Part shown: positions 6,001 to 49,330 of the stretch, in pieces
How the letters are laid out: every line of letters starts with the position of its first letter
How positions within the stretch are numbered: position 1 is the first letter of the stretch
Source: an uncultured bacterium
GTDB taxonomy: Bacteria; Omnitrophota; Omnitrophia; Omnitrophales; Abzuiibacteriaceae
Direction of reading: 5' to 3'
DNA length: 64,000 nt
NCBI GenBank assembly: GCA_964387845.1
Contig: CAYLXA010000009.1
Coordinates: 42,098 to 106,097, forward strand
Program-made: the position numbers and the translations under genes
Notes under the pieces: model-generated
Told to the model about the DNA's origin: nothing
The model's input: the letters and a program-made list of their open reading frames with translations, nothing else
Databases searched by the model: none

Positions 6001-8644
6001 ACAAATGAAACTGCGCTTTGAAGAAATCAGCTATCCGGTCAAGCGTGTGATTTTCCAGATAATTGGCCGAAGTCACTTTTGCATCGGCCGGCAAGTTTTC
6101 GTTCAACTCCTTGATAACCGCTGTTCCCCAATCCTTATGAAAGACCCAGTCTTTCGCCCACCACTCAGGTGACGTATAATTCTGCCGGTTAACGGCTTCG
6201 AAAACTTTTGCCCAGTCTTTGCCTTGATCCACAAACGATTGGAGGTCTTTCTTGAGTTCGGGAAGAATATCTTCGGACATCATCCGGATCGCTTCACGCC
6301 ACGCCTGATTGGACGGCAGTTCGGCATCAAAACCCTGTGCGGCTTCAATCGATGCATAAGCCTTTCTAAATCCCTCCAGCAAATCTTCCCACCAAGGAAT
6401 CGAAACGGTGCCGACCGCGCGGACTCCGGTGTAAATATCCACCAAATACCAGCCTCGGAACTGATTCCACAACCGGATCTGCTCGGCATCACCGTTCAAA
6501 CTGGCAGAAACTTGCTTGTAAAGACCGCTGCCTTCAACGCGTTTCTTGCGTTTTTCATCAGTCCATGCGCCGTTTACTTTAATTTCAAGCGTATCCCAAA
6601 ATTCTTTTTGCCGCTTTTCATGGAATGCGGTAAATTCGGCGAGATGTTCCGCCCACCAAGTTTTGGCTTTGGCTTCGGGAATTTCTTTCCGGTAGCGATC
6701 CGCGATTGCTTCTGCTTCCCGGTCACCGTAAAAATTATAGCCTTCGTAAAACGGCAAATGAAAACCCTGCAAATTCATAAACATCCACAAATCATGATTG
6801 CCCGGTATAAAATCAGACAGTCCCGCATCAATTAATTCTGCGGAACGATGAAATACTTTCACGCCGTAAGGCCCGCGATCCATCAAGTCGCCTAAATTAT
6901 GAAGGTAAATCTTGCGCCGCAAATCATCAAACGTAACGCCATGAACGGCCAGCTGGTCTTGAAGTGCTTTACTCGGATTCAATTTAAAATCTGCCGGCAG
7001 TTGACCGGGCAAAACTTGGTTGATTGCATCAACGATCAGTGCGTCAAAACGATCGATCGTTCCGTGCTGGTCCGAAATAACGGCTGCAATGGGAAAATCT
7101 CTAGACTCAGAGGGTTTTTCAAGCTGCGAAAGCAAATCAAATAGCAATTTCAGCTCTTCCTTTGACGGCATATAGGTAGTCGAAATGCTCTTTTCTCTCA
7201 GTTCAGAGCGGTTCTTACGATTGCTATTGTGATTGAGCTCAAAAATACGGTTAATCTGACCTGCAACAGTTGCAAGGTCACCCCGCACAGGCCATTCAAC
7301 TGTGACTAAGGTATCCCGCTCAACAATCGGTATCACGGAACTTCTGTGATCGCCTTTGGCTAATTGCACGCCACGAGTTTGAAGAAGAGTTGCTAAAGCG
7401 TGAGCGCTGCCTGCAAACTGAGGTTCCGCATGACCTGGAAAATAAACATCCAATCCTTTCTTCTTTAAATTTGGGATCACATGAACAGGCGCTTGATTAG
7501 AATTGACAAGGCCTGAAACTGGTAATTGGGCCGGTTGGCCAAGAGGATCGCTTGAATCGGCAACAGGAAAAGGACTATTCTTTGTCTTGGTTCTCTTTCT
7601 AAGAGCTTTTTTGCGGGTACTTGCTTCAGTTACCGAACCGCTGGCATGAGCAATCACTTCTCCGTCTTTATTATCGCGCTTCACTTCATAAAAAAGTACA
7701 TTTGTGCCGCCTTTCCGCTCAACTTTAAAAATTTGTAAGCGTATTTTCTTTCCGCGAGGGCCCACAAAGAAAACTGAATTGCGGGCGCGATTTAAGGCAT
7801 AATCTGAAATTGCTGCTTTAATTTCATCTATATACTGCTTCATATCGGCGGTTTCGGTGATGAAACTCGAAAATTCAAATTTCTGGATCTGCTGAGCCCG
7901 GAGTTCAGAGCGCAGCAGTTCGAGTGCGGTTTCGCGGGCTTCGGAATCTTGAGGGAACGCAAAGATGGTGTCCACCAAAACCAATTTTCCGTTTCGGATA
8001 TATTCCATAAAAGAATCGATTTCAGGCCCCGGGAAAACTCCTTTGTGTTCACCCAGCATGTGAGAAATGTGATGATTTTGCGAAACGCTCTTTAAACCAT
8101 TGCCGACATGGAAATGCAGGTGAGGCACTGTGATTTCCGTTCCACCGTTTACTCTCACTTTCAATTCTTTGCCCTGCCTAAAAAAGACCGTTAATTTTTT
8201 ACTGTCATCTGAACTTTCTATCGATGACACGCCGCCATACAAGAGAGCATCTTTTAATTGGGCAGACAAATTATCCGGCCATGCAATGGTTTGGAAATCA
8301 AGGGATCCCTCGCCCAAAAGGCCTCTGTGTTCTGTGGTTTGCGCTACAATTAATAGAAGCTTGTCCGCCAATTGATCCGCAAGCTGTTGGCTGAGCGGTT
8401 TATTCGGATCCAAAAACAACACTTGCCTGAGTTCGGAACGGAAAGAAGGATATTGCGCTGCAAATTGACGGAGTTCGGAAGCGGCTTTGCTCCAGACAGC
8501 GGCTAAATTGCGGACCGTAGTGGTGCCGGGCTTCGGCGCGAAAATAGTTTGCGGAATGTCCGAATATGCCATCGAACTCGAGAATGTAAACGCAAACAAT
8601 GTTGCGCTTGCCGTCATTTTGATCAGTTTATGTTTTAGATTCAT
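1..8644 (-). CDS. Giant mosaic polyprotein A. N-terminus at 8644; the gene continues past the left window edge, so it is C-terminally truncated by the window. At least 2880 codons in the window.
   Basis: ATG at 8642..8644 (revcomp of cat). Hand translation gives MNLKHKLIKMTASATLFAFTFSSSMAYSDIPQ... and stays stop-free down to position 2 in frame 2 mod 3. It contains, in order: a HIT-like HLHFHVGNG motif (~8100..8150), FBPase class 3, an RpoA alpha-CTD-like segment, an ACP-like segment, GTP-PEPCK, TIM and two C-terminal TM helices. It is absent from the ORF track only because no stop lies within the window. No obvious SD upstream. Confidence 0.75.
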   Translation of the reverse strand, partial: MNLKHKLIKMTASATLFAFTFSSSMAYSDIPQTIFAPKPGTTTVRNLAAVWSKAASELRQFAAQYPSFRSELRQVLFLDPNKPLSQQLADQLADKLLLIVAQTTEHRGLLGEGSLDFQTIAWPDNLSAQLKDALLYGGVSSIESSDDSKKLTVFFRQGKELKVRVNGGTEITVPHLHFHVGNGLKSVSQNHHISHMLGEHKGVFPGPEIDSFMEYIRNGKLVLVDTIFAFPQDSEARETALELLRSELRAQQIQKFEFSSFITETADMKQYIDEIKAAISDYALNRARNSVFFVGPRGKKIRLQIFKVERKGGTNVLFYEVKRDNKDGEVIAHASGSVTEASTRKKALRKRTKTKNSPFPVADSSDPLGQPAQLPVSGLVNSNQAPVHVIPNLKKKGLDVYFPGHAEPQFAGSAHALATLLQTRGVQLAKGDHRSSVIPIVERDTLVTVEWPVRGDLATVAGQINRIFELNHNSNRKNRSELREKSISTTYMPSKEELKLLFDLLSQLEKPSESRDFPIAAVISDQHGTIDRFDALIVDAINQVLPGQLPADFKLNPSKALQDQLAVHGVTFDDLRRKIYLHNLGDLMDRGPYGVKVFHRSAELIDAGLSDFIPGNHDLWMFMNLQGFHLPFYEGYNFYGDREAEAIADRYRKEIPEAKAKTWWAEHLAEFTAFHEKRQKEFWDTLEIKVNGAWTDEKRKKRVEGSGLYKQVSASLNGDAEQIRLWNQFRGWYLVDIYTGVRAVGTVSIPWWEDLLEGFRKAYASIEAAQGFDAELPSNQAWREAIRMMSEDILPELKKDLQSFVDQGKDWAKVFEAVNRQNYTSPEWWAKDWVFHKDWGTAVIKELNENLPADAKVTSANYLENHTLDRIADFFKAQFHLYQRDAYQNIYMHAFLPVDMSTGEFYFTYRSKDDPSKKIEYRGKGSKEHPSVWQGLDIVAHDIRSNPSLSEIYEALNLVNSWYADNTTEIKVPNVAAAINKFGARRLAEVNGFNRLFTGHLPFHEFATKLNAEKRGVIGGFQIDSRIIFTDHGMGERFGGRGGWIGVSLRNGIQLRGFEHADSNQVVADARTVETKEGPSGLMEAVLFENKPISPESFAADLARNVEMRIAQLQSQVESSDRKAVYKEYLSRFSAEELKEMLQVMRSKFAELVSYLHENLATLSPEDQDFQVTEFIVINEHIALLEEAIKAAARSELRGNAAQSIRFSQLNLPVKLAGLLRTKGVTTVNVLTQMSATDLRQARFSVENIQEITAALDRHGLSLRRAKSTEPSNALAAKQSELRTGDTAGASIFSIGDIQRQVIWRLREISGLESDIPIDDDVRFEDLIENWDSLKTVEFVVSLEGDFDIRIPDEEAEKIQTVASAIEVIDQLLTTRSELRAVRHAQRGRGSDTAAYEAEMRERALNEAREHLQANPGTLASALITRFGLEPSDVLDLYRDREIPSLSRSELRINLSEDDFKGVPQSVHEFVDYAHELVGAGESEWVDVSDEDRLQEEQVEWGKTSRRYFKTNDGRYVAHSHPKDVARTANRTMVLTNDSNDKGPSNNWAMADGPEGKKQTILDLMKADGYKGKKMYKIAYLMSDPDSGVRRVGIQLTDSRYVALNMIKMARVGKIAIGKLALDAIKEGYVFERGIHVTGDLDKLAAERERKENPIDNRYFALVAHEALILSYGSEYGGNALFGKKFEALRQANYDALRKKNFLAEHMLIKVLINKKTGERIGILGAYPSAVGKTNSAFVEVPDALKEDWEVEFHGDDIAWIQGQAGIKLFDEGGQPIDPTYITPIRDLNMAELISEDGWPKAESPELGSFGVLVGTNNKSNPRIMKMIGPGSKTIFTNGAYRLDPETDTVVEQWWEGLEEDGKPKPIGQPNWYVWNGMSSTDPKRIDIALKAVPVKDLEKFWLSDKSDTIRAILEEFDLEKINKKEAKSRLIKLSPHINEDVAESLMKIYAAALQWAHPNSRFTVSIPDNAKDFLPENWGKPVSFQVVEWGVKLPKGGFFLRQAPDTATGILYGLMMISAATAAAAGTVGALTPSPFANGDFEAGDEIAHTNNMFEFFENQPKEVIFITHNVFKEGPDGKPEFPGFRENVRRDIWSSERVKDPRGTKNAKKWPMLIGFTPTVDGFRREGLDMTDEALAKLLDVSEQDLEWFTKEAIRWRQWLFEEKGVVHGKTRYERLHPKLRQKFDEIMNDWNSFQAQRAIEKLKIDSEALARAENAKRTPIIGGNWKMAVNDKISAQVLTEQIVVSLGNTQLENDPEIIIAPSFVHIDEVVREIKRLRETTIYPGSKQLTLGAQDLSAEEPGAQTSQISYAQLKDLGVQYVIIGHSERRHGNLKKAADHRLTESDPVVNDKVKIALKNGLKPILAIGELLEEREAFKTFGVIEKQILEGLKDVTAEQMANVVIAYEPVWAIGTGKTATPEQADEVQRYIRALVLSIYGEDVASKLRIQYGGSMNPKNAASLVAKKNIDGGLIGGASLKADEFTGIVKAANESVRSELQVELISGFGSEWKIQVRAGDKEFLAPVASFNPEVTARTVEANLRHIGLKGEVNGSKLKIAGSDQEIDFENLDQAVSDLRDVLNAVLNRSELRQQVDAQSLEVLKQNDPNLFKALTDAISDRPISDFHRRTLVGKELLRATGEVPQFVRETVEQLSRSELRAQKNSNDLFIKVLDELKNIRRVTVDKVILLASNLGYAINRREAVQLIHSIGFTVHQKGSQFYSRPDYGSRSELRTDSLESLTGRTKWLAISAFVAAGVLVFAFGPIVRSVGLKETFEGYFSEISFGQVAVGVIGVLGLAAAVIIRRIKSGTQDTNAGHSKASKTATAYSLEDMRALITQLVDHAERTTELALSKIDPEQTDWLERFQGFKNEYFKLARDYLN
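190..430 (-). other. Two predicted TM helices near the window-edge end of A.
   Basis: WLAISAFVAAGVLVFAFGPIV and VAVGVIGVLGLAAAVIIRRI, preceded by SRSELRTDSLESL. Confidence 0.5.
1200..1995 (-). other. Module in A: triosephosphate isomerase.
   Basis: PIIGGNWKM (~1951..1981), IIGHSERRH, AYEPVWAIGTGKTATPEQA, YGGSMNPKNA (~1262..1295). Catalytic Asn, Lys, His and Glu are all present. It directly follows PEPCK with no RSELR between them. Confidence 0.9.
2030..4288 (-). other. Module in A: GTP-dependent phosphoenolpyruvate carboxykinase (PckG type).
   Basis: VARTANRTMV, then LAEHMLIKVLINKKTGERIGILGAYPSAVGKTNSAF (kinase-1a, compare FPSACGKTN), then EFHGDDIAWIQ. Preceded by RSELR at 4289..4303. Confidence 0.8.
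4289..4303 (-). other. Example RSELR site in A (codons CGC AGC GAA CTG CGG).
   Basis: Plus strand ccgcagttcgctgcg. Reads ...LSRSELRINLSEDDF at the N-terminal boundary of the PEPCK module. In frame with A. Confidence 0.9.
4540..4700 (-). other. Module in A: acyl-carrier-protein-like domain retaining the DSL phosphopantetheine-attachment serine.
   Basis: ENWDSLKTVEFVVSLEGDFDIRIPDEEAEKIQTVASAIEVIDQL. The ACP signature DSL-x-x-VE-L-x-x-x-L-E-x-x-F-x-x-x-I-P-D-E-E-A is present. Flanked by KQSELR and TTRSELRA. Confidence 0.6.
4870..5045 (-). other. Module in A: RNA polymerase alpha C-terminal-domain-like helix-hairpin-helix segment.
   Basis: FSQLNLPVKLAGLLRTKGVTTVNVLTQMSATDLRQARFSVENIQEI resembles the RpoA alpha-CTD (LELSVRSANCLK...GKKSLTEI). 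Confidence 0.35.
5070..7190 (-). other. Module in A: fructose-1,6-bisphosphatase class 3 (Bacillus Fbp type, metallophosphoesterase fold).
   Basis: Motif LGDLMDRGPYGVKVFHRS encoded at ~6868..6895. FIPGNHDLWM follows downstream. The block is about 700 aa. It is bounded by RSELR at ~7196..7210 and ~5052..5066. Confidence 0.55.
8534..8644 (-). other. Leader of A: Sec-like signal or leader peptide of the conserved family.
   Basis: MNLKHKLIKMTASATLFAFTFSSSMAYSDIPQTIFAPKPG. First RSELR at about residue 67. Confidence 0.6.
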
Positions 8645-8651
8645 GTTTTTA

Positions 8652-8679
8652 GTGATAAGTGATAAGTGGTAAGTGGTAA
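8652..8679. repeat. Four tandem heptamers in the 75-nt B-A spacer: GTGATAA x2 then GTGGTAA x2.
   Basis: Read directly: agtgataagtgataagtggtaagtggtaag. On the coding (minus) strand this is CTTACCA CTTACCA CTTATCA CTTATCA, ending about 10 nt before the A start codon. Confidence 0.7.
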
Positions 8680-8702
8680 GCAACTTAAAACTTACCACTT
8701 AC
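8669..8702. promoter_or_regulatory. Perfect 12-bp inverted repeat with a 10-nt loop between the stop of B and the start of A.
   Basis: gtaagtggtaag (8669..8680), loop caacttaaaa, cttaccacttac (8691..8702). The left arm overlaps the heptamer repeats. No U-tract follows on the transcribed strand, so it is not a canonical intrinsic terminator. Candidate RNA processing or regulatory stem, or a protein-binding site. Confidence 0.5.
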
Positions 8703-8719
8703 AACTTACGACTGAAAAA

Positions 8720-11700
8720 TTATGCGGCGCGTCCCAATTCGATAACGTTACGCAGTTCCGATCTTAAAGATTCCGCAATTTGAGTAATACCAAACGCATT
8801 AAACAGCGCCTTGACTTCGCTCCGGCCGACAAACACAACCTGGCTTGCATAACGCTTCAGCATTTCGGCTGACGTTGCGTCACTTTCTTTTGAAGCAATA
8901 ATCCTGAAATTCTTGGCACCCAATTTCCGAAGTTCTGAGCGCGCCTGGACAAAATCGCGCACAATCACAAAACGGTCTGAGTTTACATCCGCAACCGCGG
9001 CCCGGATGGCAGTTTCGCTGGCCGGATCAAGCGCAATGAGCGCCGTCGGATCGGCCGAATTTTCTAAAATAATCGGAAGTGCCCATAAGACATCCTCGTT
9101 AATCAAAAGGCCTTCTGTCAGAATATTACCGACTGCCGTTTCTACCCCGGCGCCATCCTGCGCTTGCATAAATTGACGAATAGCCGCTTGAGGTTCTTCG
9201 CTTCTGGCACGGGTAAACTGCCTCCGGCCTGCTTCGACTTTCGACCTGATTCGTGTAGTAACGGCCGCAGGAATCATGGAAGACGTATCCAACGAGCCAA
9301 ACGCAGAGCTCGGAACCGCAGTCAATCGCAATTCGGAACGGGTTTCTAGTTTCTGGTTTTTAGTTTCTGGTTTAAACTTGAAACTAGAGACTAGAGACTC
9401 GAAACTTTCCTTACGAAGTTCGGAACGCTCCCACTTACCCGTCTTTTCAAGCGTGTGCTGCGCAATTGCGTGTTTAGTTTTAATCAAAGACCCCAGATCA
9501 AGTTCAAATTCCGAGGATGTTAAAGTATATGTACCCGAAAATCTGGATTCCAATTGCTGGATGCGTTCCACACCTTCCAGAACCAAAACTTTTGTCATGT
9601 TCAACTCATGATCAGACTCAAGCCCGAGATCGATACGATGTTGGGTCCTGTTCACAACCGAAACGAGCGCAAAAAGTTCCGAGACCATTTTCCCGAATGC
9701 CATAAAATAGCTTTGAACTTCTTTCTTATCTTTGATGGCTTTTGCCCCGCCAAACCGTTCTATAAGTTCTTCGCCGGCTTTTTCAACCAAAGCTGATACG
9801 TTCCAAACAATTTCCCAATCACGCTGAAGCGGGCTTTGGTCTGGAATATCCCAGCCTTGCAGCAATTGACGGTCATTCTTCCACACTTCGGATTCCAAAT
9901 ATTTGAGTACTGCCGATGCAATAACTTGCGAATAAAGGATTTCGTTGGCGCCTTCAAAAATCGTCATGACACGGGCATCCGCGTTAGTACGGGCGACTTG
10001 TTCTTCAACCATAAACCCCGCACCGCCGCGTTTTTGAACCGCTTCACTTGTCAAACGGTTCAGAACTTCAGAGCCCCACGCCTTCGCGGCCGCAGCTTCA
10101 AGCCCTGGTTCCGAAACACCGCCGTCAAAAAGCCCGGCAAGTGAATAGCTAATAGACTCAAGCGCATAGGTGTAAGCTTCCATGTCTGCAAGCGTTTCCT
10201 GAACAGCGCCCCAATTGGCGAGCTGCGTACCGAACTGTATGCGATCGAGCGACCAATTTAAAGTTCTTTCAAATGAACGGAGCGCACCGCCCCAGCTTCC
10301 GGCTGCGACCGCCGTACGGCCGTGATTGAGAATCGACATGCCGATTTTATTGCCGTCGCCCAATTGGCCGAGCAGATTTTCCTTCGGAACCCGCGCATTC
10401 TCAAAATACACATCGACAGTCGAAGAACCATGAAGGCCTGTTTTGTGGTAGTCGTTGCTGATGGAAATGCCTGCCGCTTTGCGTGCTTCCGCATCCTTCG
10501 GGAATTCAACGATAAAAACACTCTTCTCGTTTTCACCCGTCATCGCAAATACGGTCATAACATCCATGAAACGGCCGTTTGTGATAAACGCTTTTTCGCC
10601 GGTAATTTCATAATATTCTTCACCGGTCGTTTCATCTTTTTTGAGCACCGCTTTGGTTTTTAAAACCGATTCGCGGTTTAAGCTGTCTGAACCATGCGCG
10701 GTTTCAGTCAACGCGTAAGCGCCGATCCATTCGCCGGTCGCGAGTTTCGGCAGGTATTTCCGCTTTTGCTCTTCCGTTCCGAATTTCACAATCGGAAGCG
10801 TTCCGACACCGCCATGAACACGAACGAGAGAACCCACCGACGGATTGGCATACCACGCCCACATATCTGCCAGTGTTTTCATAATCTTTTTAAAGTTACC
10901 CAACCCGTATTCTTCGGGAACTGACATCCCCAGCAAGCCCATCTCTCCTGCCTGCTGCAAAATGCCGCCCTCATCCTCAACTTTGACAGCGCCGCTATCA
11001 ATCTTTTCGCTTTCCGGAACTACCGCGCTCTTGAAGAAATTGGCGATGGCTTCATTCATTGCATTGATTTCTTCATGACCGGCTAAATCTTCCGGAAATT
11101 GGAGCGTGCCTTCGGCCACATTGGCGCGGCCATATAATAGGAAGTCGCCGGATTTGGGCGTACTTTCGGCGAACGGTACCAGTGCTTTGTCATTCTGAGG
11201 CGCAGCCGAAGAATCTACGGTCGCAGATCCTTCGCTTCGCTCAGGATGACCGGCTTTTGCCTTATCCAGCACTTCTTTTTCCATCGCGTCCATCATTTTC
11301 AGAGTATTGGCGCGAATCAAAAGAGCGTTCTTTCCATTTCTTGCTTCATAGGTAACGGGAACGATCGGCAGTTTTTCACGCGTGACTTTGATTTTGTCAG
11401 CCGCGGGAGCAATAGCGCGGATGTCAATCACATCGCCCGGACGGATGTCATGATTAAAAGTAGCCAGATCGGTCACATTCAGTAATAAATGACCGGGAAC
11501 GGCTTCCGCAGACATCCTGGCCGCTACTTTAATGGCTGCAAGAATATTGACAAGTCTCGGATCATTTGATTCGGCAATCACGCGTACACCGTTTAAATAA
11601 TCTTCCGTAACCGTTACGGGCAGAAGGCCGCTTGGATTTTCATTTGGCGATGACGTATCTTGAATGCGCGGGCTTGCAGAATCCGTAAAATCAAATATCT

Positions 11701-14700
11701 GCTTCGGAACCGAGTGCGTAACACCTTCGGACCATGCTTTCGCCTGATCGATTTGCGATTGGGTGGGTTTTGAAGTATCAAACGGCTCATCGGCCGGCCT
11801 TGGTTTCATATTGGCAACGATTTCTGCCACCACTTTCCCGGCTTGATTAACAACCTGAATCTTAAGCTTCGCGACACCATTTTCAGAAATACTCATGACT
11901 TCAATGACCGGTGTCACCACGTCGTCAAACTTCACGGGCGCTGAAAATTTCGCGCTTTCTACCGCACTACCCTCATCTCCGATGCCGATAAATTCATACC
12001 CGGGAAGCTCTTCCTGGGTACGGGCCAGCATTTTAGAAACCGTCAGAAGGCCATGTGCAACCAGAGCGCCAAATTTGGACGCTTCCGCGTATTCTTTGAG
12101 TAAGTGGAAACGGTTGCGGTCGCCTTCCATCGCGAAGAGCTTGACCATCCACTCGCGCATGATGAGCGCGTTTCCGAGAATCTTTTGGCCGGCGAATACG
12201 GAAAGTGCGTTGTCTTCCGTGCGCCCGCCCGGACGAAGCGCTAAGAGAAGTCTTGCGCGCGCCTTTGTATAACGTTCTTTTTCGGCATCGCTCAAAATAC
12301 CAGGGATTTTCATGGCGCGTTCCATTTGGATAAACGGAATGCGCGCGGATGCAGCATCTACGATTTCAAGCGCGCCGGTCACAGGATCTTTGAATCCGAC
12401 AGCGCCAAGGCCGCGGTCTTGATCGGCAACGGCGTAATCTTCGATAATCGCAAGGTCGCGCTCAGTTGAATTTTTCCATGCTTTTGCGTACGCTTTGCCT
12501 GCATCACTCTTGAGCCATTCTTTCTTGGCCGCTTTGCCTTCATCCGTTTTCAAATCAAATACGGGCATCGCACCGACCGTGTCAGCGCGTTGCGGACTTA
12601 ACAAGCGGTTAATTTCATCAACTTGATTGGCTTTTGCAAGTTTTCCCGCGAAACCCCAATTGGCGACACGTTCCGCTTCATGCGTTACATTTTCATCACT
12701 GGAATAACCATCGATCGCGTCAATTTTTGAATATGCCGTGAGAGCAATAAAAAGTGAGTGATAATAATTGTAACCTTTCGTTGTCGGATCATCTTCGGCC
12801 TCATGAACCATATTGCCGTCAACATCGAAAATCGCGGCCGTTACGCGGCGGCTTGCACGCATGATCGACTGCGTTTCCGATTCCTCAAACGCTTTTGCTT
12901 CTTGTTCGATTGCTTTAGGGTCAGAAATGCTGGGTACAATTTCAAACCCTCCCGTGAGATATCTATAATCATGTTCAAACTCGGATAGAAAACCGTCTAG
13001 CTCTCTGATTTCTTTTGCGCTTTGTGTGTTTTGATACACAATACCCGTAACAGAGGATGCGAGTAATGGGAAAATATCCTTAAGTCTTTCGATTGGATTT
13101 GACTTTGCAGTTTCAATCCAAATAATCTTTTCATGCTCGCCCGGGAGCATCAATCCTTTAAGTTTTTGTATAGAATCCTTGAAAGAACCGTCTTGCCACC
13201 ACGAAGCCGGTGCGGAATCTAAATTGATTTTAATGATATCCACCTCTGAATTCATTGCTATATTCAGAGCTTCATAGTCATTTACGTCAACACTTACGAT
13301 TGATCGTGCCAATGACACATCGCGCGGAACGAAAACTTCGGGCGGAAGAATAGGTTTGCTGTCGGCTGCCATTTTGTCGAGATCGGCCAGTTTTATTTCG
13401 GGTAATTTTTTGTAATCGTAATCCGGATGTTTGCGGATGACAGGCGGAAATTGGCCGAGGAATGGCTCCATTCCCTTCAAGTGGTTCGGATGAACGCTCC
13501 ACTTGCGGTTCATGCCGATCTTGATAAATTTTTCTGTGTCGGCTGTGGTCGGCTCAACTTCAAGTTTCACGGTAATGCCGGTACCCGCCACTTTTCCGGT
13601 TTTCTTTCCGGCTTCAACGATATCGAGAAGCGCTGAGCGCATATACGGAAATTGCTCATGCTGCACTTCATTTTTCCCGCCGGTTGCGGCTGTGTAATCG
13701 ACAACGCCAAGCTGTGCTTCTTCTACTTCCGGAGCAATTGATAAAATCCGTTCAGCGTTCAAAGTTCCACCGGGAAGTTCTGTGAGCACAAATACTTTAT
13801 GAGAACCGACGGGGCGATTGACCCATTTTTGTTCGGCTTGAATCGCACGCAGATTGGCAACACCGATGCGGACATCCTGCGGGCCGAATACTTTCGGCAT
13901 ATAAATACCGTCTATCAAATGGCCGATGGCGCGAAAGACGATGGAATAATCGCCCGCGGACCACTTGGTGCGCAGATTGTTCGGACGGAACAGAATCATC
14001 TGGTCTTTATGGAAACGCGCTTCTTCTTTTAATTGGAAGCGTCTATTGCGCGAATGAATCTCATCCCACTCGTCTTCTGACAACATCCGGTAATCCGAAT
14101 AATCGGTGTCATCCGGCAATTCAATAAGATATTTGTCGATCGGATCTTTTTCGTCGTTGGCCTGCAAAGCATTCTTTTTCAAGAAATCAACTTGCTCTTG
14201 TGTGAGGATTTCGCCCTTGAACAACCGGATCAATTGAATAATGACTTCGCGCGCAAGTTCCTTGCGGATGGTCGCTACGGCATCTTCCAAATCTAATAGA
14301 AGAATCGGAGCCTTCATGCCCGCGCGTGCGGCAAGCAGCATGAATTTCCAGTTATCACCGGGAAACACATTTTGGACTTCGCGCGGCATGTACTCCCACG
14401 CAAGCCGTGCGGCAACTTCATCAGCCGTCACATCGGGCTTCACGACTTTCCAATTTTCGTAGCGGTAATTGAGGTCTTTCACGGCATGAGCTTCATCATT
14501 GCCAAACGCGGTCAGCAATGCCTGCTTCACTTCCGCATTCGTCACTTGATCGAGCGAAATTTCCCGTAATTCGGAACGGACAAACTCGGGGCTCTTCAAT
14601 CTGTTGCGGTCAATTTTTTGAAGGTCGCCGGTGCGCGGAAGTGAGGAAACAATCACAACCCGCTTGGGTGCTTTGTAATGGGCAAGTGACTCTTTTGCGG

Positions 14701-17700
14701 ATTCAATAATCTCTTCTTCCCTGCCTTTTAATGCTCCGAACCAGGCTTCGGTGACAAAAGCAACCACCACTTCATCAAAATGGCCGACCAATTCGGCAAA
14801 GTCATCATCGGAAATAACGCCGGCCTCGCCGTGAACAACCTGATCAAAATAAGCAGGATCGTTGATTCCGACGACTGCAACTTCATTGACACCCTGAAAA
14901 TTAGAAATTACCTTTTCCACTTCGCCCGGATTTACATTTTGGCTGCCGGTGATAATGACGTTTTTCGTACGGCCGGTGATGGTCACGTAACCTTCGGAAT
15001 CTATTGTCGCCAAATCACCCGTACGGACCCACGTCAGGCCGATTTTTTGAGTTAAAGCCTCTTTAGTCGCTTTCGGATCATTCCAATATTCCCTCATCAC
15101 TTGCGGAGCCGAAACAATAAGCTCGCCTTCCTGACTGCCTGCAATGATGTCCCAAGTTCCCGGCTTCACAACACGCGCCACAACATCACGGTTTGGCTTT
15201 CCAACCGTTCCGGGTTTTTCGGCGTTAATCGGGTTCGTGATGGTGCTGGTGGCTTCGGTTAATCCGTAACCTTCGATCAAGCGCGCGCCGGTTGCTTCTT
15301 CAAACGCACCTTTTACTTTTCCGAGAGCGGAACCGCGGCTTAGACCGATCAAGCCCGGAAATTTCCGGCCTGATTGCGCCAGCGAATGGAAAATTGCGGG
15401 AACCGCAAACAACAACTTCGCGTTTGATTCGGCCAGCGTTTGCGCCAAGCCGTCTACAAATGATGCGGAAGTTTGATTATAAGGAAGGCGGGGCGCGAGA
15501 ATAATCGGCCGGCCTTGAAGCATGCTCGCAAACACCACATGCGTTCCGTAAGTTTTCGGCTGTAAAGGAATCACGGCCGGTCCCGGCTCAACATCCTTCA
15601 GCCAATCCTGATATTGTCCGAGCGTCGCTGCAATATTCGCATGCGTCTGTGCCACAATTTTCGGAGTCCCCGAAGTTCCGGTCGATGGTGAAAGCTGCGC
15701 AATATTTTTTTCATAAACCGGCCTTCTGGAAGGAGCGCCGTTCGTGGGCGTATTAAAAATGTCATCGAGCACTTTCGCGGTTCCGTGGCGTAGTCTATGT
15801 TCGCCCAAATCAGAAACATAAATCCTTAAATTCGGGAATTCCTGAACAATATTTCTCAAATCATCTTTGCGGTAATAGTCAGTCAAAATCACCAACGCTT
15901 TTGCGCCGGTTTCTTTGAGATGGCGGACGATATCACTGCGGTTCCACAAAGTTTCAAACGGAACACGGACGGCGCCTGCCCGCCAAATCCCGAGGTCGAC
16001 GGCAAGATCATAGGCCGAATTCGGCATCATGACGGCCACGCGGTCGCCTTTTTCAATTCCCGACCGAATGAGCTCTGCGCTGAACCGGCCGGCCCATTGG
16101 CCGAGCTGTTCGTATGTTATAGATTGATTTTCCATCGGAACCACGGCAGAAGCGCTTCTGGCCAGCCGGATGGTTTGCTTCGGATATTTTTCTATCGCAT
16201 CGTCAATCATTCGCACAATGTGGTAATTGCGTGCTTCAATTTCCGATGTCACCTGCGCTCGCATTGATATAGTTGCGTGATCAGGTACCATTGGCGATGG
16301 ATTTAAATCGAGGTCTTCCATATTAACCGGCTGCGGCGCATCCGAGACCCACTCTAAGAGCGAGCGCGGAATTGTGACGGAGTAGCGATCCGCAACTTCT
16401 TGAACCAGCGACAGGACACCTGCGGCGCCGATCTCGGTCATTTGCTTAAAAATGCCTTTTTCCCATTTGAACGCGAGCCGGACGGCAACGTCGATGCCCT
16501 CTTTGGCTTCTTCGGGGCTTTCAACATCCAGAATGGCATTTTCATCGATCAACTGCCATGCCACCAAAAATACGCCGCCCAAAATAAAATCACGGACCGC
16601 GCCCACAACATTATTCGGAAGCGTTTCGCCCGCGGAAAACTCAACTCTTCGGGCTTCATTAAATTGAGATTCAAAATCAAGCAAAGACGGAGAGGGCGCA
16701 TAAAATTGATCCGGATACGCGCTGTGCAGAATTCTTTGAGAGTTTGCCACAATGTCAGGCGCAATGTACTTCGCGACAAGCTCTGCCGCTCCTTGTGCGG
16801 CGCCGAGCGCCATTTTGAATGCTTCGTCAATGGTCGCGAAATTCACGTTTTCCATATTAACGCCGATGCCGCCCAAAATGGTTGCCGGAGCGCCTTCATC
16901 CGCGATCCGAAGCGCGTGATTGAGCACGGGAATAATCAAACGGCTTGTCACAAACCCCGGCTGGCTTTTTACGACAATGGCGGTTTTTCCGACCGTACGC
17001 ACGAACATTTTTGCGCGCTCGACGGTTTCCGGCGAAGTTTCTCTTCCAACCACAATTTCGACCAATTCATTCACGTGCGCAGGAAGCTGAAAATGAATGC
17101 CGATCACATATTGTTTCCGCTCGGCACTGACCGCTTCGGCAAGCTCTTCAATCGGAATCGTCGTGGTGTTGGTGGCTAAAATCGCACCTTCTTTCGCCAG
17201 CTTATCCAATTGCCTAAAGAGCGCCTGTTTCACGGCTTTGTCTTCAACCGCAGCTTCTATAATGATACCTTTTGAAGCCACTGCTTCCGGCAAGCTGGTG
17301 CCATAATCCAACAAGTTATCGAGCTGGCCGAGCTGGGCTTCCGATAATTTTCCATTTTCATGGGCTTTTCTAAAGCTATCTTGCAAGGTTTTCTGTGCCT
17401 TTTGAATCATTTCCGGTGAAATATCATAAAGCGACGTCCATAATTCGCCGTTCTGTGCGGCGACTTGCGCAATCCGCGATCCCATCTTCCCCGCGCCCAA
17501 TACTGCCACATAATTATCTTCATGACGCGAGCGCAACTCGGAGCGCGGCATTTGGACGAGCTCGGTGAGGACTTTCTTGCCGCCCTGAATGGAAACAAGC
17601 GTGAAGAAAACGGTCGTGCCGTTTGCTCCGGGGCGCGGCGCTTGGTCGACTAATATGATTCCGGAAGTTTTGCTTTTGGCGGCTTCAACGATGTCTGCCG

Positions 17701-20700
17701 CGGCAGCTTCGATATTGGGCGTCCAGATTTCAACCTGCTGGATACCTTCGCCGAATTTGGCAATATGTTTTGTAATCGTATTCCGCGGGCTATCAGGCGT
17801 ATCCGTTAAAATATCAAGGATTCTGGGCGATCCATCAGCCCCGCCGACGGTGATTTCGAACTCATTAACGCCGACACCTGTCGGAACATCGGAAAGCGGA
17901 TGATCTTGCTCGCCCCACAACACACGGATTTTGGCAAAATTTTCGGCCGATACGGCAAGCCCCGCCGAAGCAGCGCTGGAGTGGCCGATTGCGGGCAAGA
18001 GGTCTCTTTCCACGGGAACGGAATGATTGTAAATAACCGGATTTTGGCGGACAACATCAATCAATTGGTCGCCCGCAATCGCAAAAATCCGCGCTGCATA
18101 CTCTCTGATCTTGGGATCATCTGACACCAAGTCTGCGGTTGTGACGACTCGTGTTTTTGAAAACGGTTCGCGGGCATCGCGAACGAGCGGCTCGGGCTGC
18201 GGATTTGGTCCCTCACGAAACGCTGTGACCCCCACAAGCGGCGTAAGGCCGGCAACAATTTTTGCGGTTTTCATGTCTGCTGCGCGTGTAATATCAGAAG
18301 CTGAAACGGGCACATCCTGCAGCAAGAACTTCCTGGTTGCATCAATCAATTGGCTGGTTAACTCTTCAATCACGAAGGAACCGCCCAAGGGGTCACGAAC
18401 GCCCTCAAGGCCGGCTTCATATTCCAGTACGGCGACCGTGTCTTTGGCAAGCTGTTCCGCCCACGCACTCCAGCGGGTACGAATACCGAACGGAAGGTCA
18501 AACGGACGAACTTCGATTTTCTGGGCCCCGCCCAATTTCGCGGCGAATGCCTGAAGGGCACCGCGGGCGATGTTATTCCATGATTTTTCGGTTACAAGAG
18601 ATGAAGCATCCGTGCGGGCAATGATGCGAAGCTGTTGGGCTTCGGTGTCTTCGATGCCCTTCTCTTTCAGTAACGTTGCCCACAATTCCCGAGCTACACG
18701 GAATTTTGCCACATTTTCAAGAAATTGGTTTCCTGCATTTAATCGAAAAACAACTGACCGTGCGCGCTCGGTTTGTATTTTTGAGTCATCGGCTGCGAAA
18801 ACAAATTCAAGCGCTTTGTGCAGTGACCACGCCAATTCTTGCGCTGCCGTTACTCCGGTCTCACCGAGTTCAAAACCATTGACCACATAACTATTAGCCG
18901 CATCCTCGATTTCACGATTAATTCCGCCGGTGTAAGGAAATTGTGCCGACTCCGGCTGATTAAATGACGGTTCCGGAACAGAAGCCAATTGCGCTGATTG
19001 TTCGGTCAAGTAATTCCGAAGTTTTTCATTGAAAAGCGGTACAAACTCGCCTTCCCACGGCGTTTCACGGTCCGCAACGCCGAAAACATTTTTCAAACGT
19101 TCCGTAATTTCACCGATAGTCGCATAAGCTTCGACCGCTTCGATGATGGACGGCATCAGGTTGGTTGATTCGGACTTAGCGGCGGCTTCAACCGCGTCTA
19201 ACTTTTCCGCAACCAGCGTGTTATCTCTTTCTGATTTTAATTCTTCAAGCGCTTCGATTTGCTTGGTACGGAATGTATCGCCTTTCGAATCAACGCTGAA
19301 AATTTTAACCGGCGGCGCCAACTTGTCGCCTTCGGTTTCTATATTCACACCGACTACCTTTTTTGTTCCGCTGTCAATGGCCTTGGTTTCCTCATAGGCA
19401 TGTTGAAGCACGCGCTCATTTAAGTCGCTTAATACTTTGGTTAAATCGCTTTGCTTTACATATTCACCGAGCATGGACCAAACCTGGCGCTCGATACGGT
19501 CCGTCAATGTTTCCACATAACTGTTCTTGGCGCCGCCCAAAGGATCAATAAATTCGGTGATTCCGGTTTCATTCAAAACAATATTGCCGGTATCAAGAGA
19601 AATGGCCTGGCTTTCCGCCGTCGGGATAGCAATCGCCTCATCAAACGAAGTGGTATTAAATCCCTGAGCGCCGGTAAATACCGCTGTGACGGTCCGAATC
19701 GCATCACGGACAATATTGACATGCGGCTTATGAGCGCGTAAGTCGGTTCCGCCCGTGTAAGCCTGGACGCGCCAATGCATCGCGCGCGGATCTTGAACGC
19801 CGAAACCCTCCTTCATGATCTGCGCCCAAATGCGGCGCCCGGCACGGTATTTCGCGACTTCCTCAAGCGAATTCATTTTCACGTTCATGAAGAAGGAGAC
19901 CTGCTTGGCAACCTCTTCAACATTTTGGCCGGCTTCCTGCGCCACGGTTAAATATTCGATTCCGGAAACGAACGCGGAAACCAGTTCTTCAACAGCCGTC
20001 GCGCCGGCTTCACGCGCGTGATAACCGGTCACGCTAATAGTATTGAAATAAGGGACAGCGTCTTTAGCAAAAGCAAAAATATCGCGAATCAGCCGCAAAG
20101 AAGGCTTAAGCGGGAAAATAAATGTGTCGCGGCGGCCCACAGCCATTTCTTTAATAATATCGTTCTGAACTGTTCCGCGGAGTTCTTTTACATCCACGCC
20201 GGCTTTTTTCGCGGCCGCGATGAACATGGCAAGCAAAATAGAGGCAGGTGCGTTGATTGTTTTAGAAACACCGATTCGTTTCGCGGTCAAGAGCTTCATC
20301 ACTTCAGGCGTAAACAACGCTTCATAATCTTTTAATGAAGCAACCGAAATTCCGGCTTTGCCCACTTCCCCGAGTGTTAATTCGTTTGTCGGATCCAATC
20401 CTAGCTGTGTCGGGAGGTCAAACGCGGTGCTCAAGCCTGTAGCCCCTGCTTCAATTTGCTTCAAGAAAAGTTCTCGAGTTTCATCAGCAGTGCCAAAACC
20501 GGAATACTTTCGATTAACCGGAAGCCTGCCGCCAAAACGTCCGACATACATCGACGGATGAATGCCGCGCGTAAACGGATATTGTCCGGCTTGGCCAAGC
20601 ACGCCCAGCGCGATATGCAGCTCGCTCCTGTTCGCCGGCCGTCCGCTCATTTCAATGACTTGCGCAACCCACTCCGCAGGCGCGCCTACCGGTCCGCTAA

Positions 20701-23700
20701 CCGCCGCTTTGGCAGCAACCGCACCGACTCGTTCTTCAGGGGTCGGCTCTTGTGTCCCGGCGTCAAAATCGTATCCCTCTAACCACGCATCCGCATCAAA
20801 TCCCGAAGAAGCAGCGCGAAGCTCGCTGCGGATTCCGCGTACTTCTCTAAATTTCTGTTCGCTTTCTGCCGTAATCTCATCAACCGACCGAAGCAAACGT
20901 TTATTAAATTCTTCCGCTGTCATTTCTTGAATCTCTTTCAGTGCGATCGCAATATCTTGATCCTGCTGCTTCTTTTGCAAACGTTCGGTTAGCCGTTTGA
21001 TCAGAAACGCGCGAAATTCACGATGCTTCATGTTTGTCACATCTTCATCACCGATCGTGAGTAAAATTTGTCTGTATCGGATTCCCATGGACGGATCCAA
21101 CGCGAGCGCGGTGAAATGATTAAGCATTTCCTGGGATACATCGCCCATTTCACGGAGGACGGCTTCTTTGTTAGCATCGCCAACCGTAATCGGACCCGTT
21201 GTGCCGATCAGCCCGGCCGCGTCGCTGCCAGATGTGCCTTCAAGTAATTCTTCTGCCGTATAAGGCGCCTTGGCTTCTTCAACCGGGAAAACCCATTCGC
21301 CTGCGGCGCGCTCTGCTTGAAGGCGCTGCATTTCCGCGGTAAGGTGCGATTCAAAACTTGCAACCGAAACATCTAGAAGCTTCTCATAAGCGGCATTAAT
21401 TTTCTCGCCTTCTGCTTCGTTTTCTTTCGCGACTCTCTGGTAACGCTCCTGCATTTGTGTTTTGATTTCATCCAAAATTTCAGCCGGAGATTTATTTTCG
21501 ATATTAATTTCGGGAACAGTTTTTAGAATTTCGATGTAAACATCGCCGCGTGCCGGATCAGCCGCACGCGCAATCGCATAAGCTTCCGCCACCGCAAAAA
21601 TATCCGGAAGCCTATTTTCTATTCGCTCAAATAATTCATCTGTGTCCGGCTCAAGGCCCAAAGCTTCCTGCACGGCGGCAGAATCTGAATGAGCAATGGC
21701 CTGCCACGCTTCAAAAACAGCGGACGACAATTTATCTTCCGCCGGGGTTCTGGGCTCGTAGGCCGCGTAAGGATCGTAAACGATCCCCTGCTCTTTGGCG
21801 GTTTCAATCACTCGAAGCGCAAGTTTTATATTCCGGACCTGGTCACGGTGAACCTGTTTTTCATAAGCTTCGGCGATGGTTTTAATACCGCCTTCTTGAA
21901 CACCGGCCAAAATATTATTCTTGCCCGTTCCTTGTGATTCAACGGCCTTGGGCAAATCTGGCCACGAGAAAAGTTTTGCCGGAGGCGGAATAATTTCGCC
22001 GCGCATGATCCAGTCAACCACGGCAGATGCCTCAGAGCCTGACGCGTAATGCGAGCCCAGCATGACTTTGCGGCTTAGTAAAATGGAAACTTGCGTCATC
22101 CAGGTATTCGCCGCGTGATAACGAAGCGATAGCTTGGAAGTATCGTTCGGATAAATAATTTGAGAGAAGAAACCAACAAATGTGAGCGGGTTTAGAATTT
22201 GTTCACCGTCTTCACCATCCCACAGTACCACCGACACATCCGGGCCGAATGGGGTTCCGTCTTTTCGCTTTCCAAAAACTTCGCCCAGAGCCTCGCCAAA
22301 AGGCAGAACAACGGAAGTCTGATAAGCACTGAACGCTTTCTGCCGTTTTTCGAATTCACTATTTTCATCAGCGGTTGACGTGTCAGAAAGCACCTGCGGA
22401 GGGTCGGGCATCCGCTGAAAATACCGCCCGGCGCTTTCGGCAGACGCGTTTAGCTGCGCCTGAACTTTACTTAGAATTTCACGCACAACTTCTTCGGATT
22501 GGCCGAGTTCTGAAATGAATTTTTTATTTTCTAGAATGTTGCCAAAATTTCCTGATTTCACCTCATCAAAAATTGATTTACCGAATGAAAGCGGAATAAT
22601 GCTCTTCATTTTTTTGTCTTTGATTCCGCGTTCTTTTAAAACAACTTCGAATGCTTGGCGCAAACCGACCACATTTTGAACATGATCAAGGCGTAAAATT
22701 CCGTCCGGCACTTTACGGCCAAATTTTGTACGTTCGTCTAATAAACCCCAGTTCCGAATGACGGCTTCTTCAGCTTGATCGCGGGCAACTACAACAACTG
22801 TCGCGCGGTTTTTCTTTGCCTCAATCACAGATTCTTTTGCACGTTCATCGGACCCTGCGACCATGACTCGGCGCATTCTGGGAACGCGGTAACGATTACT
22901 GCGTAAATTTTTAGCACGGGCAAACATCACCGAAATTGGCGCATCATCACGCGTTCCGAAATGCTCGTGAGCAAAACCTGTGGCTCCGGCTCCGAAAAAT
23001 GCGGCTTGGCCGCCCATGTCATTCGGATCTTTTGGATCGCCTTCGCGAAGTGCTGCAAAATGTAATCCCGCCATCTTTTGGCCGGAAGAAAACAGCGCCT
23101 TATTCGGGCGTGCTCCGGGACGCCCAAGACGTTCCATTGCCTTGTCTACTGCAGCCACATAACTAGCTTCATCGGAAATGGATGTACGATAAATAACTTC
23201 GTCCGCGCCATAAACTTTTCTTGCCACTTCTTCATTTTGTGCACTTGAAACGGTTGTAATGACTTGAGCGCCTCGAAATTTTGCAAGCTGAGTTGCCGGT
23301 CCACCCGTACCGCCCGCGCCGCCCTCATTGAGAAGGACTTGATCCTTTTTAACACCAAGCACGTTTAGCGCGTGTTCAACCGTTGGATAAACAAGACCAA
23401 CAGGCCCTAACTGTTCAAAATCGTAGGCGCCGTCTTCTACCCGGACAACTTCGATGGCGCTCAAAACGGTTTCCTGTCCAAAACTGCCTTCAAAAGCATT
23501 TTTAGCTTCATACGCCAAAATGCGGAAACTTCGGTGCGCTTGCGCGCTTCCGCCGAATGCGTCCAGAACCAAAAGATCATGGGTTCCGCTGAGCATAATC
23601 ACCATATCGCCGACTTTGAGCGCATTCTGCTGGGACGCCAACGACCCGACTTCGGTAACGATCATGAGGCCGGCACTGCCGAGCACGGTTCCTAATTCTT

Positions 23701-26078: not shown

Positions 26079-26147
26079 ATTTTTTTTAAGATATTAGGTA
26101 GTTTTTTACATCTATAAGGGCTTATTTACCGAATATATAGTATAAAA

Positions 26148-29100
26148 CTACGCTGCCCGAGTCATGCTATTGTACAACTGCTTAGTCCTACTCATCTTAT
26201 CTGCAAGCGCAACAGTGCTAAATTTCACCTTCAAATCTTCTAATGCCTGCTGTGTCAAAATGACAATCCGAATCTGCTTAAGAAACGGGCTTACATCCTC
26301 CCGCACAACTTCGATTTCCCGGGACGAACCTTCCAAAGTTAGGTAGCCGACATCAAAGATTTTTCTTAATGTAAAGCGGCGGGCGGCATCCTTTGCGGAG
26401 CCGACGATCATGATTTTTCCGGAAGCCGGCAGCAGTTGGTTTAAACGATAAAGTAAATCTTTATCCTTCTCATCCCGAGTAATAACCGAAAAAGTCACCT
26501 GGTCACCAAACGCTTTTAAAAATGGGACCGCAAACGCCGAAAGCCCTTCATCAAAGAAGAGGCTGGGCGGAATAATAATACCTTGTGCGGCAGTGCTCTT
26601 TGGCGCCGAGCTCACCGCAGAGTCATTTCCCGTAAAGACTTTCCAAGACGCGGAAACTGCCTCTTCGTTTTTGGTCAACTCATCCGGCGAAACTTGATCG
26701 GCAATGGTTACAAATTCATCCGAATCATTTTCCAAAGCTTCCGGGCGAGTCTCTAAACTCTCAAAGAAATCTGAGCGAAGCTCCGATCTTTCTGCCGGTT
26801 TGGACGGCTTTGGCTTAAAAGCTTCAACCTCCTGATTGTTTTGGATAATCAAATCACGGCCCGCATCCGGATTGAGGCCTGCCACAAATTCGTTAAAGAG
26901 CATCTGGCTTGTTTGATGCGTCAAATCGCTTGATTCACGGCGGATGATCCGGTCGCGGCGAACTTTGTCATCGGTTTCAACTAAAACTTGAATATCCGGA
27001 ACGACGGACAACTCGGGCTTCGCCCTTGATAGAAGTAAATCCCCGAAAACACCAGCTACTAACACGATCTTCTTTCCGGATAATGCCTGCTTTAAATCCT
27101 TCTTAAAACGATTCACGTAAACATAATCGATCCATGTTTTATCCGCATCAGGCACAAACAGAAATCCGTCTTCATCCACGATACGCTGATCTTCCGGCAC
27201 GGTCGGAGGAAGATAGTCATCACTTTCGATATACTGAATATCCTCTGGAAGAACGCCGGCAGTCCCTTGCTTTGTGATGATTTGTGAAAAAGTACTTTGG
27301 CCGCTGCCTGACAGGCCCGCAATCCGGACCACAACCGGATCTCCTGGTTTTTCCGAAAGTTTGGCCCGTATGAGACCTTGTAGTTGAATAAGCCCTTTTT
27401 GAAGGCCGCTTGTGAGCAACTGTTCGGTAAGGGTATCTTCAAACTTCCTAAGTTCCGAACGCTTAGCCCGAGATGGCTCGATGGTTGATTCGAAAATTTC
27501 CCCATTTTCTCTATAGTAGCCAAGATTTCGAAAGCGCCAGTAACGCTGGTTGCGGATTTCGTCCGGGGATAATTTGGACAGAGCTTCTAAATTAACGCGG
27601 ATTCTTTCAACCATCTTTTGAACCGCGGCATTGTGGTCTAGGTGAGCGCCGCCTGCCGGCTCTTCAACAATTTCATCCACGATTTTAAGCTCTTTCAAAC
27701 GTTCCGGTGTCAACGCCAATGAATCGGCAAGTAAAGCCACGTGTTCTGGATCATAATCCCGGAAAATAATTTTGGAAGCCGATTCGGGAGCAATCACGGA
27801 ATAATAGGCGTTCTCTTGAATCAAGACCCGGTTGCCGAGCGCAAGCGCCATCGCGCCGCCTGAGCCGCCTTCGCCCGTAATCACAATAATCACGGGCACC
27901 GTCAGATTGGCAAATGTAAGCAGGTTGAGCGCCACTTCTTTGGCAATTCCGTTATTTTCACCTTCCGGCCCCGAAAAACCGCCCGGTAAATCTAAAAAGG
28001 TAATCACGGGGAGGCCGTTTGCTTCCGCGTGCTTCAGCAGCTGGCGTGAAAATTGGTAACCGCCATGGAGCGGCATTGCAGAATGCAGCCGTCCCTGTTC
28101 CCACTGGTAAAGGTACGAACCTGTCTCGTTCTCCGGGTATTTTTTCCTTTCGACTTTACCAGCTTGGCCTTTTTGTGTACCGATCACTACCACTTCTTTT
28201 CCATGATCCATGCGAACCACGCCGCCCACCACTGCCGGGTCTTTTTGATTGGGCCATACCGTAAACCGGCCTAACGCATTCATATATTCCATGACACGCG
28301 GCCTAAATTGGTCTTTTCCATTAATACGGGCTAACTTGACTACTTCAATCGCTGCGCGGCCGTTTTGTTTGGGTGTAAAATCATTGGGAATTTTTGGCAA
28401 TGCTACTGCCGGAACGGCTCGATACTTTCCGCGCAATTCTTGATCGCGGCCCGTTTGATAAAACCTTTCGATCAGGACAGATAAACGGGCTTTTTGGTCT
28501 TTCCGATGCAGAATTCCGTCAATTAAAAGCCCCTCGAACCAAATTTTTGAGTTCTGAAAATCGGCTCCCAGTAAATGAGCGGTTTTTTCGGTAATTCTTA
28601 AAAATTCCCGGGTCACCCGCTCGCCGGCAAATCCGATCCGGGCTTCGGGTTCTGCAAACAGCAAATCGCCCTGGTTAGAGAAACTGACGGCAGGGCCGGC
28701 AAGCGTGGGATCTGCCATCAATGAAATATAAAGGCCGCCTTCCCGTTTGTATTTGGCAATCGCAACGCTGACTTTGCCCAGCTGCATCATTGAAGTATTG
28801 CCTTCTAAAATGCGTGCGCCGCCTGACTGCGACACAATCACGAGCGGCAGACCTTCTTCATTGGCGCGTTCAACTAATCTCGCGATTTTCTCGCCCATGA
28901 CGGAACCAAAAGTTCCGGCAATAAAATAATATTCTAAAACGGCAATCGCTACTTTGCGGCCATTGATATAGCCAACGCCGGTCACGATGGCGTCCTTTTC
29001 TTTCATGCGCTCCTGATTTTCGGCGATGTCTTCCGCATAAGTTTTCTTGCCTTTAAAATTCAGAAAATCCACGGGTTCGAGGCCAGCATTCATTTCTTCA

Positions 29101-49280: not shown

Positions 49281-49330
49281 GTATATAAGGTATTTTTTTT
49301 AATATGATAAGATAACTTTGATACCTTTTA

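Follow-up and report, generated by a model that had tools for sequence, protein, structure and literature searches.

The spacer between the giant ORFs B and A in the 64-kb stretch of Omnitrophota DNA analysed here (the window) belongs, by its sequence, to a widespread (GTGRTAA)n–loop–(TTAYCAC)n family of palindromes, full-length versions of which carry a PF05635 S23p (four-helix-bundle) gene in the loop. The reading that we favour, at a probability of roughly 45 %, is that the window copy is an ORF-less 'solo' heptamer element which would serve as an RNase III cleavage site and/or a stability hairpin in a B–A co-transcript, by analogy with the S23p-type intervening sequences (IVSs) of 23S rRNA. 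What the initial annotation had seen as an odd regulatory hairpin is thereby given a specific identity that experiments can probe, with RNase III as the candidate enzyme. That annotation had proposed a regulatory or processing structure; among its suggestions an RNase site appears the best supported, through homology, whilst an attenuator finds no support, and the structure is a copy of a repeat family that recurs across many unrelated bacteria rather than a device specific to this locus.

Layout and folding of the B–A spacer

The heptamers, the perfect 12-bp inverted repeat with its 10-nt loop and the 75-nt spacer were all recovered at the positions initially given for them (Table 1). The original description in terms of four heptamers was accurate for the F arm, but it missed the inverse R array, which begins 12 nt beyond the F arm (F..R order), as well as the palindrome with 35-nt arms. 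TRF reported two abutting period-7 arrays in the spacer, of 4.3 copies on the left and 4.7 on the right. On the mRNA the R arm is the 5' arm (GTCGTAA GTTGTAA GTGGTAA, or AGTCGTA AGTTGTA AGTGGTA in the register used below for comparison with locus L127) and starts 7 nt past the stop codon of B, whilst the F arm is the 3' arm (CTTACCA twice, then CTTATCA twice) and ends 7 nt ahead of the ATG of A. B and A are co-directional, and the element as a whole starts 1 nt past the TAA of B. Its 5' half on the mRNA reads UAA-UUUUUC-(AGUCGUA AGUUGUA AGUGGUA AGUUUUA)-loop and its 3' half (CUUACCA CUUACCA CUUAUCA CUUAUCA)-CUAAAAAC-AUG; the outer T-run/A-run of the palindrome puts the stop codon of B and the start codon of A at the stem base, each 1 nt off the outermost pair. 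Facing inner units (GTGGTAA:TTACCAC) pair perfectly and the outer ones contain G·A, A·C and G·G mismatches, the window copy being worn, with four transversion mismatches among the outer units. Direct reading of the sequence shows stop codons in all three frames of the F arm and none in any frame of the R arm.

Table 1. Positions of the ORFs, promoter-like sites and repeat features discussed in the text (strand '.', not strand-specific).
Feature	Position	Strand	Remarks
ORF A	left window end to 8644	-	runs off window, at least 2881 aa
ATG of ORF A	8642..8644	-	signal-peptide-like N-terminus
B–A intercistronic spacer	8645..8719	-	75 nt, nearly all filled by palindrome
Full imperfect palindrome	8646..8718; arms 8646-8680/8684-8718	.	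35-nt arms, 80% complementarity (repeat finder)
F arm, GTGATAA GTGATAA GTGGTAA GTGGTAA	8652..8679	+	4 units, 0 mismatches; GTGATAA x2 at 8652-8665, GTGGTAA x2 at 8666-8679
Perfect 12-bp stem, hairpin core	8669-8680/8691-8702 (8669..8702)	.	10-nt loop
R arm, TTACCAC TTACAAC TTACGAC	8692..8712	+	3 units, each with at most 1 mismatch
TAA stop of ORF B	8720..8722	-	
ORF B	8720-25876	-	5718 aa
Second heptamer palindrome	9342..9405	.	GTTTCTA-type vs TAGAAAC-type units; in frame in ORF B
ACCTWATATMYT sites	26088-26099, 49280-49291, 63872-63883	-	~200 nt upstream of B, E, F
ORF C	26148-39689	-	
ORF D	39676-41250	-	14-nt overlap with C
ORF E	41289-49076	-	
ORF F	49365-63677	-	

Folding the spacer, a check suggested by the initial annotation, gave -28.6 kcal/mol for the mRNA strand (z = -7.0), with 0/200 shuffles as good, and a slightly better -32.5 kcal/mol for the complementary strand (z = -7.0). 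Together with the lack of a sense-strand advantage across the family (see below), this does not point to mRNA rather than DNA as the selected molecule; G·U pairs among the spacer mismatches (1 vs 2) are also without strand bias. The minimum free energy (MFE) fold additionally pairs CAU with AUG. Shuffles of the window gave an expectation of 0.00 for the array pattern, which was found three times, all in the spacer, and the spacer arrays differ by 0 and 2 mismatches from a family pattern that was taken from this spacer itself. No other short-range inverted repeat in the 64 kb is as long as the spacer palindrome or a second palindrome inside ORF B.

The earlier reading of the spacer as neither a canonical terminator nor a promoter holds. 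On both strands the stem is flanked 3' by an A-run and not by a U-run, and no SD precedes A, the 7 nt ahead of its ATG being UAAAAAC; the lack of an SD and, for the transcript, of a U-run had been noted before. A site scan found nothing promoter-like or terminator-like inside the spacer. Over 8300-9700, Rfam gave no rRNA or Rfam hit and only sub-threshold miRNA-hairpin look-alikes, and no match to the array sequences was found in the literature searched. The splice-donor-like GTAAGT was rightly called coincidental, as it is simply the point where GTGGTAA units join, and such units turn up again and again in bacterial contigs with a GC content of 42-71%.

Every long ORF of the window is encoded on the minus strand. 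A promoter-like block, ACCTWATATMYT, is present at just three places in the window, 195-223 nt ahead of the start codons of B, E and F, its pattern having been derived from these same three sites, which renders the shuffle statistic partly circular. B, E and F are each preceded by a long, AT-rich spacer, and the B and E leaders also have a second block in common (TGGCTCT..AAAACTTT..AAAAGTC); ahead of A, no ACCTWATATMYT-like or leader block was found. This arrangement implies that the B, E and F transcripts would carry long 5' leaders and, since the block lies upstream of B, E and F with none before A, we infer the transcription units F, E-D-C and B-A. In a B-A unit the palindrome would be intercistronic within an mRNA of >25 kb. 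A and B are also in frame with each other (stop codon and ATG being 78 nt apart, with two in-frame TAA codons between), probably by coincidence, for which the chance is one in three. The N-terminal 498 aa of A had no relative in species-representative genomes or among 5.8 billion proteins and, as such, no comparative analysis of the spacer was possible.

The giant ORFs around the spacer fuse ordinary enzymes of central metabolism, namely TIM, PEPCK, two methylmalonyl-CoA mutases, MeaB, biotin carboxylase, carboxyltransferase, 3HCDH, ACAD, acyl-CoA ligase, HpcH lyase, MaoC, GDH, PGM, UDPGP and RidA. A conserved signal-peptide-like N-terminus (..FSFTxxxAYSD) is found in A, B, C, E and F, and a common C-terminal domain of ~210 aa in B, C, E and F. 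Between the domains stand 52 copies of an RSE[LV]R peptide, which resembles a signal for the cleavage or sorting of a polyprotein; a nucleotide-level repeat was ruled out, as all synonymous codons are used. A profile of the shared C-terminal domain retrieved nothing by word-indexed search, whilst an exhaustive profile search returned the window's own proteins and four relatives that resemble them in N-terminal signal, RSELR-like motifs and C-terminus. One belongs to Candidatus Abzuiibacterium crystallinum (phylum Omnitrophota) and another, P0124, sits in a related giant-gene cluster, L127; the giant RSELR proteins found relatives only in a few proteins of Omnitrophota. In B, the methylmalonyl-CoA mutase domain had one outlying best match (P0001, 51% identity), encoded on locus L006 beside partly fused homologues of B's other domains, and an exact look-up of protein F returned only a 16.8-kb duplicate contig. 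Nothing relevant to RSELR or to giant bacterial polyproteins was found in the literature searched, and these giant secreted polyproteins merit study of their own.

A heptamer family and its S23p-carrying members

The search for further heptamer arrays that the initial annotation had advised was empty within the 64-kb window, which holds one GTGRTAA copy and one palindrome from another heptamer, and was productive in metagenomes, where a contig scan with three CTTAYCA units as the query identified at least 120 array loci, of 21 to 71% GC. Among the matches listed, none contained RSELR and none placed a family copy inside an ORF. With pairs defined by at most one mismatch per unit and by arrays within 1.2 kb of each other, these matches include, in addition to the window copy, at least 29 (GTGRTAA)n–loop–(TTAYCAC)n pairs, in hosts of 42-71% GC and with loops mostly of 9-100 nt. 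Pair order in the matches listed was 31 F..R vs 2 R..F, both R..F pairs being by-products of adjacent F..R pairs, and the variable fourth position of the heptamer covaried between the arms (A:T 18, G:C 9, G:T 1; Fisher p=1.4e-6).

Neighbouring genes, which rest on crude ORF calls, were callable for 19 pairs, 12 of them co-directional, seven convergent and none divergent. In the pairs listed the upstream ORF usually ends -21 to +5 nt from the F arm, and at four loci it ends 18 nt inside that arm. Downstream starts are often too near the element to leave room for an SD; in some members, e.g. L019 and L113, the start lies 4-10 nt past the R arm without an SD, the context at L019 being 'CACTAAGAATG' as against 'CACTAAAAACATG' in the window. 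When 12 family members were folded, neither strand had an overall advantage, with 6/12 favouring sense. The sole evidence that being transcribed matters is the location of the family, at the 3' ends of genes and never between divergent ones (0/19).

In only three of the ~30 pairs among the matches listed (L127, L019 and L046), a PF05635 gene lies between the arms (E = 1e-33 to 1e-42), which are then separated by ~400 nt; at L029 and L093, PF05635 genes adjoin heptamer arrays. No S23p gene was found anywhere in the 64-kb window. One of these three cassettes is that of L127, the related Omnitrophota giant-gene cluster, where it occupies positions 1961-2400 between homologues of D and C. Its left arm follows the stop codon TGA (TTTC-AGTCGTA AGTCGTA GGTGGTA AGTCGTA), its loop gene encodes 118 aa matching PF05635, '23S rRNA-intervening sequence protein' (E = 4e-41), and its right arm follows that gene (CCTACGA CCTACGA CTTATGA CTTACGA). 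The left arm of L127 is identical to the mRNA-sense left arm of the window at 30/34 positions (88%), and the two have the same beginning, directly 3' of a stop codon. In the MFE fold of L127 the two arms pair around the S23p gene. The D/C junction thus differs between the two clusters by presence or absence, with a cassette in L127 and none in the window, where D and C overlap by 14 nt. As a further observation, the called start of the L127 C homologue lies inside the S23p gene, its N-terminus (..LRPTTYDLRL..) being encoded by the R arm.

For an independent sample of S23p genes, a tblastn search with the L127 protein returned 49 plasmid records, mostly of Nostocales, of which eight were fetched. 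Heptamer arrays flank five or six of these eight S23p genes, mostly in inverted orientation and built from other heptamers (GGGAACA/TGTTCCC, AAAGGGA/TCCCTTT, GAGGGCAGAAGG/CCTTCTGCCCTC and others). Because the plasmid arrays use other heptamers, S23p genes go with the layout and not with a specific heptamer. One plasmid gene, on Pseudanabaena galeata plasmid pPg_01 (L135, 45868-47012), lies between cas6 and cas4 in a CRISPR-Cas locus and is flanked by long direct AAAGCTA/AAAGCCA heptamer arrays.

Candidate roles in the B–A transcript

In Coxiella, the loop of the 23S rRNA IVS encloses an S23p ORF, the terminal stem measures 28 bp and heptameric repeats occur two to three times in tandem (PMC4990558). 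RNase III excises this IVS and makes its 5' cut at the first of the repeats (PMC4990558; Warrier et al. 2016). As the window element is like this IVS in layout, it is a likely RNase III substrate, although cleavage here is argued by analogy with rRNA elements. B and A would be co-transcribed from the promoter region upstream of B, given that neither a promoter-like nor a terminator-like site falls between them and that ACCTWATATMYT stands only upstream of B, E and F. In the B–A RNA the element would fold as an interrupted ~30-bp stem running from the stop codon of B to the start codon of A, most likely to be cut by RNase III in the manner of the S23p-type IVS stems of 23S rRNA; alternatively, or in addition, it could act as a REP-like barrier against 3' exonucleases. 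The B–A message would thereby be split, leaving its halves free to differ in stability, and cleavage would give A a short, G-free, unstructured leader (CUUAUCACUAAAAAC-AUG) for which no SD is needed. Solo copies may have another role than the S23p carriers, or none. If they are processed, this would constitute a general way to set unequal expression within operons, and one especially relevant to transcripts of at least 25 kb, such as B–A.

We consider it rather unlikely that the palindrome is a neutral relic, i.e. a decaying selfish or mutational DNA element (MITE-like, or arising by slippage and template switching) with no role for B or A. Such an origin would fit the degenerate outer stem units, the missing sense-strand folding bias across the family, the cassette present at the D/C junction of L127 but absent from that of the window, and the second palindrome, for which, placed as it is in a coding linker, a role as RNA is difficult to envisage and which folds weakly as mRNA (-19.0 kcal/mol). 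In disagreement with this, however, the heptamer is kept over hosts of 42 to 71% GC, the arms covary and the F..R order is strict (among the matches listed), and 0/19 family members lie between divergent genes; moreover, even a relic stem of ~30 bp would, within an mRNA, be a substrate for a double-strand RNase.

Since stop and start codons lie at the stem base, translational coupling is a reasonable local alternative, if an improbable one. Here the stem would pair the A-run before the AUG of A with the U-run after the UAA of B, and a ribosome ending translation of B would melt it and re-initiate at an AUG without an SD. The single nucleotide separating each codon from the outermost pair, the CAU:AUG pairing in the MFE fold, the absence of an SD and the start codons 4-10 nt past the R arm in other family members are all consistent with such a device. 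Nevertheless, 7/19 family members stand between convergent genes, where coupling is impossible, and in the S23p-carrying members ~400 nt separate the arms.

A transcription terminator for B (possibly bidirectional or factor-dependent), with a promoter of its own for A, is very improbable in spite of a hairpin directly 3' of the stop codon and seven family members between convergent genes, as the stem is AT-rich with no U-run on either strand, the spacer scan found no terminator-like or promoter-like site, the palindrome uses up all 75 nt and the B/E/F promoter-like motif is absent. Equally improbable is a repeated DNA site (operator or iteron) to which a protein of transcription or replication would bind, for although a set of four direct heptamers opposite three to four inverted copies recalls the arrays bound by multimeric proteins, the family avoids divergent (promoter) regions and hugs gene 3' ends, and domain scans of the window ORFs found no DNA-binding regulator gene near the spacer.

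The favoured reading of the spacer as a solo element may extend to the second palindrome, which is translated as SLVSSFKFKPETKNQKL between two RSELR motifs and is placed exactly at the N-terminal boundary of the C-terminal domain of B. It folds to -38.7 kcal/mol on the plus (antisense) strand vs -19.0 on the mRNA, and 5/7 of its mismatches are G·U on the plus strand. Probably this is a second solo element from a different heptamer, which is plausible because the layout, and not a specific heptamer, accompanies S23p genes. Two other ideas were dropped. Integron attC-like cassette borders around the C-terminal domain of B did not hold, as the homologous domain of E is without such flanks. A programmed frameshift or bypass had been raised by GTTTAAAC at the centre of this palindrome and by the frame shared by B and A; the frame is unfit for X_XXY_YYZ, and two TAA codons stand between B and A.

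Locus L006 offers a related observation. At positions 11600-11720 and 12094-12366, within the nearest relative of the mutase domain of B, the ORF crosses a terminator-like hairpin (CCCTCTCC..GGGGAGAGGG TTTTT) into a second mutase-like segment. The read-through also spans R-type heptamers (ACTTACG ACTCACG ACTAACG), and the ORF contains in-frame 8-mer arrays (GACTTACA). The junction looks like a gene fusion by read-through of a former spacer.

A broader and quite speculative scenario, to which we attach a low probability, would treat the heptamer palindromes as arms of a hitherto undescribed, cross-phylum, S23p-borne element that lands at stop codons, with arrays of four to five units binding a pentameric, Avd-like S23p protein. 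In this Omnitrophota lineage such elements would stand where genes once ended and may have contributed to the loss of those boundaries, neighbours being fused into giant RSELR polyproteins when the F arm is lost. Erasure would be possible since all frames of the R arm are free of stop codons, and the scenario is suggested by the palindrome within ORF B at 9342-9405, by the R arm translated at the N-terminus of the L127 C homologue and by the read-through junction in L006.

Comparison with known elements

An intrinsic terminator has a GC-rich stem and a U-run, and the window spacer is without both. Closer in appearance are the TAACTGA heptamer repeats of marine Beggiatoaceae, Cyanobacteria and Bacteroidetes (MacGregor 2015, PMC4679880), arrays of which are almost always direct, with one inverted case in 170 (PMC4679880). 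They share with the window an intergenic array a few nt before an SD-less start codon, stops in all three frames one way with translatability the other, occasional copies in ORF ends and a patchy cross-phylum distribution. The window units differ, however, in sequence (GTGRTAA/TTAYCAC) and in forming opposed arrays, and no S23p link is reported for TAACTGA.

Cyanobacterial STRR, reportedly described by Mazel and co-workers in 1990, are said to be tandem 7-nt intergenic units, some of them forming stem-loops between operon genes. The Nostocales-dominated plasmid sample of S23p genes has heptamer arrays of STRR style; STRR are nonetheless built from other heptamers in direct arrays, and an F..R palindrome with S23p cargo falls outside their definition. 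Nothing linking STRR with S23 was found in the literature searched.

The REP/BIME elements of enterobacteria, dispersed in many copies per genome, are imperfect palindromes in transcribed intergenic regions, rare between divergent genes, that can stabilize upstream operon mRNA; they are non-autonomous, their partner being the RAYT transposase. The present family resembles them in placing a palindrome between co-directional or convergent genes and in having non-autonomous copies with a protein-coding partner. The arms of the window element, in contrast, are heptamer arrays and not a unique REP sequence, and the partner gene is S23p and not RAYT; Pfam scans of the window ORFs found no RAYT (Y1 transposase) domain.

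S23p-type 23S rRNA IVSs are the only studied elements with this layout. Those of Coxiella, Leptospira and others have, like the window element, a long terminal inverted-repeat stem holding tandem heptamers, and are part of a longer host RNA, as the window element is inferred to be. They carry a PF05635 ORF in the loop, as do L127, L019 and L046, whereas the window loop of 10-12 nt has no ORF; they occupy helix 25 or 45 of 23S rRNA, whereas the window element lies between two protein-coding ORFs; and the heptamer is GACAGAT in the IVS vs GTGRTAA in the window. On two defining points, then, the window element falls outside the IVS class, being neither in rRNA nor in possession of an ORF. The comparison nevertheless joins three things that have been treated separately, namely intergenic tandem heptamers, the S23p or 'four helix bundle' family of unknown function and rRNA intervening sequences, and it suggests that IVS-like cassettes also occur inside ordinary operons of many phyla.
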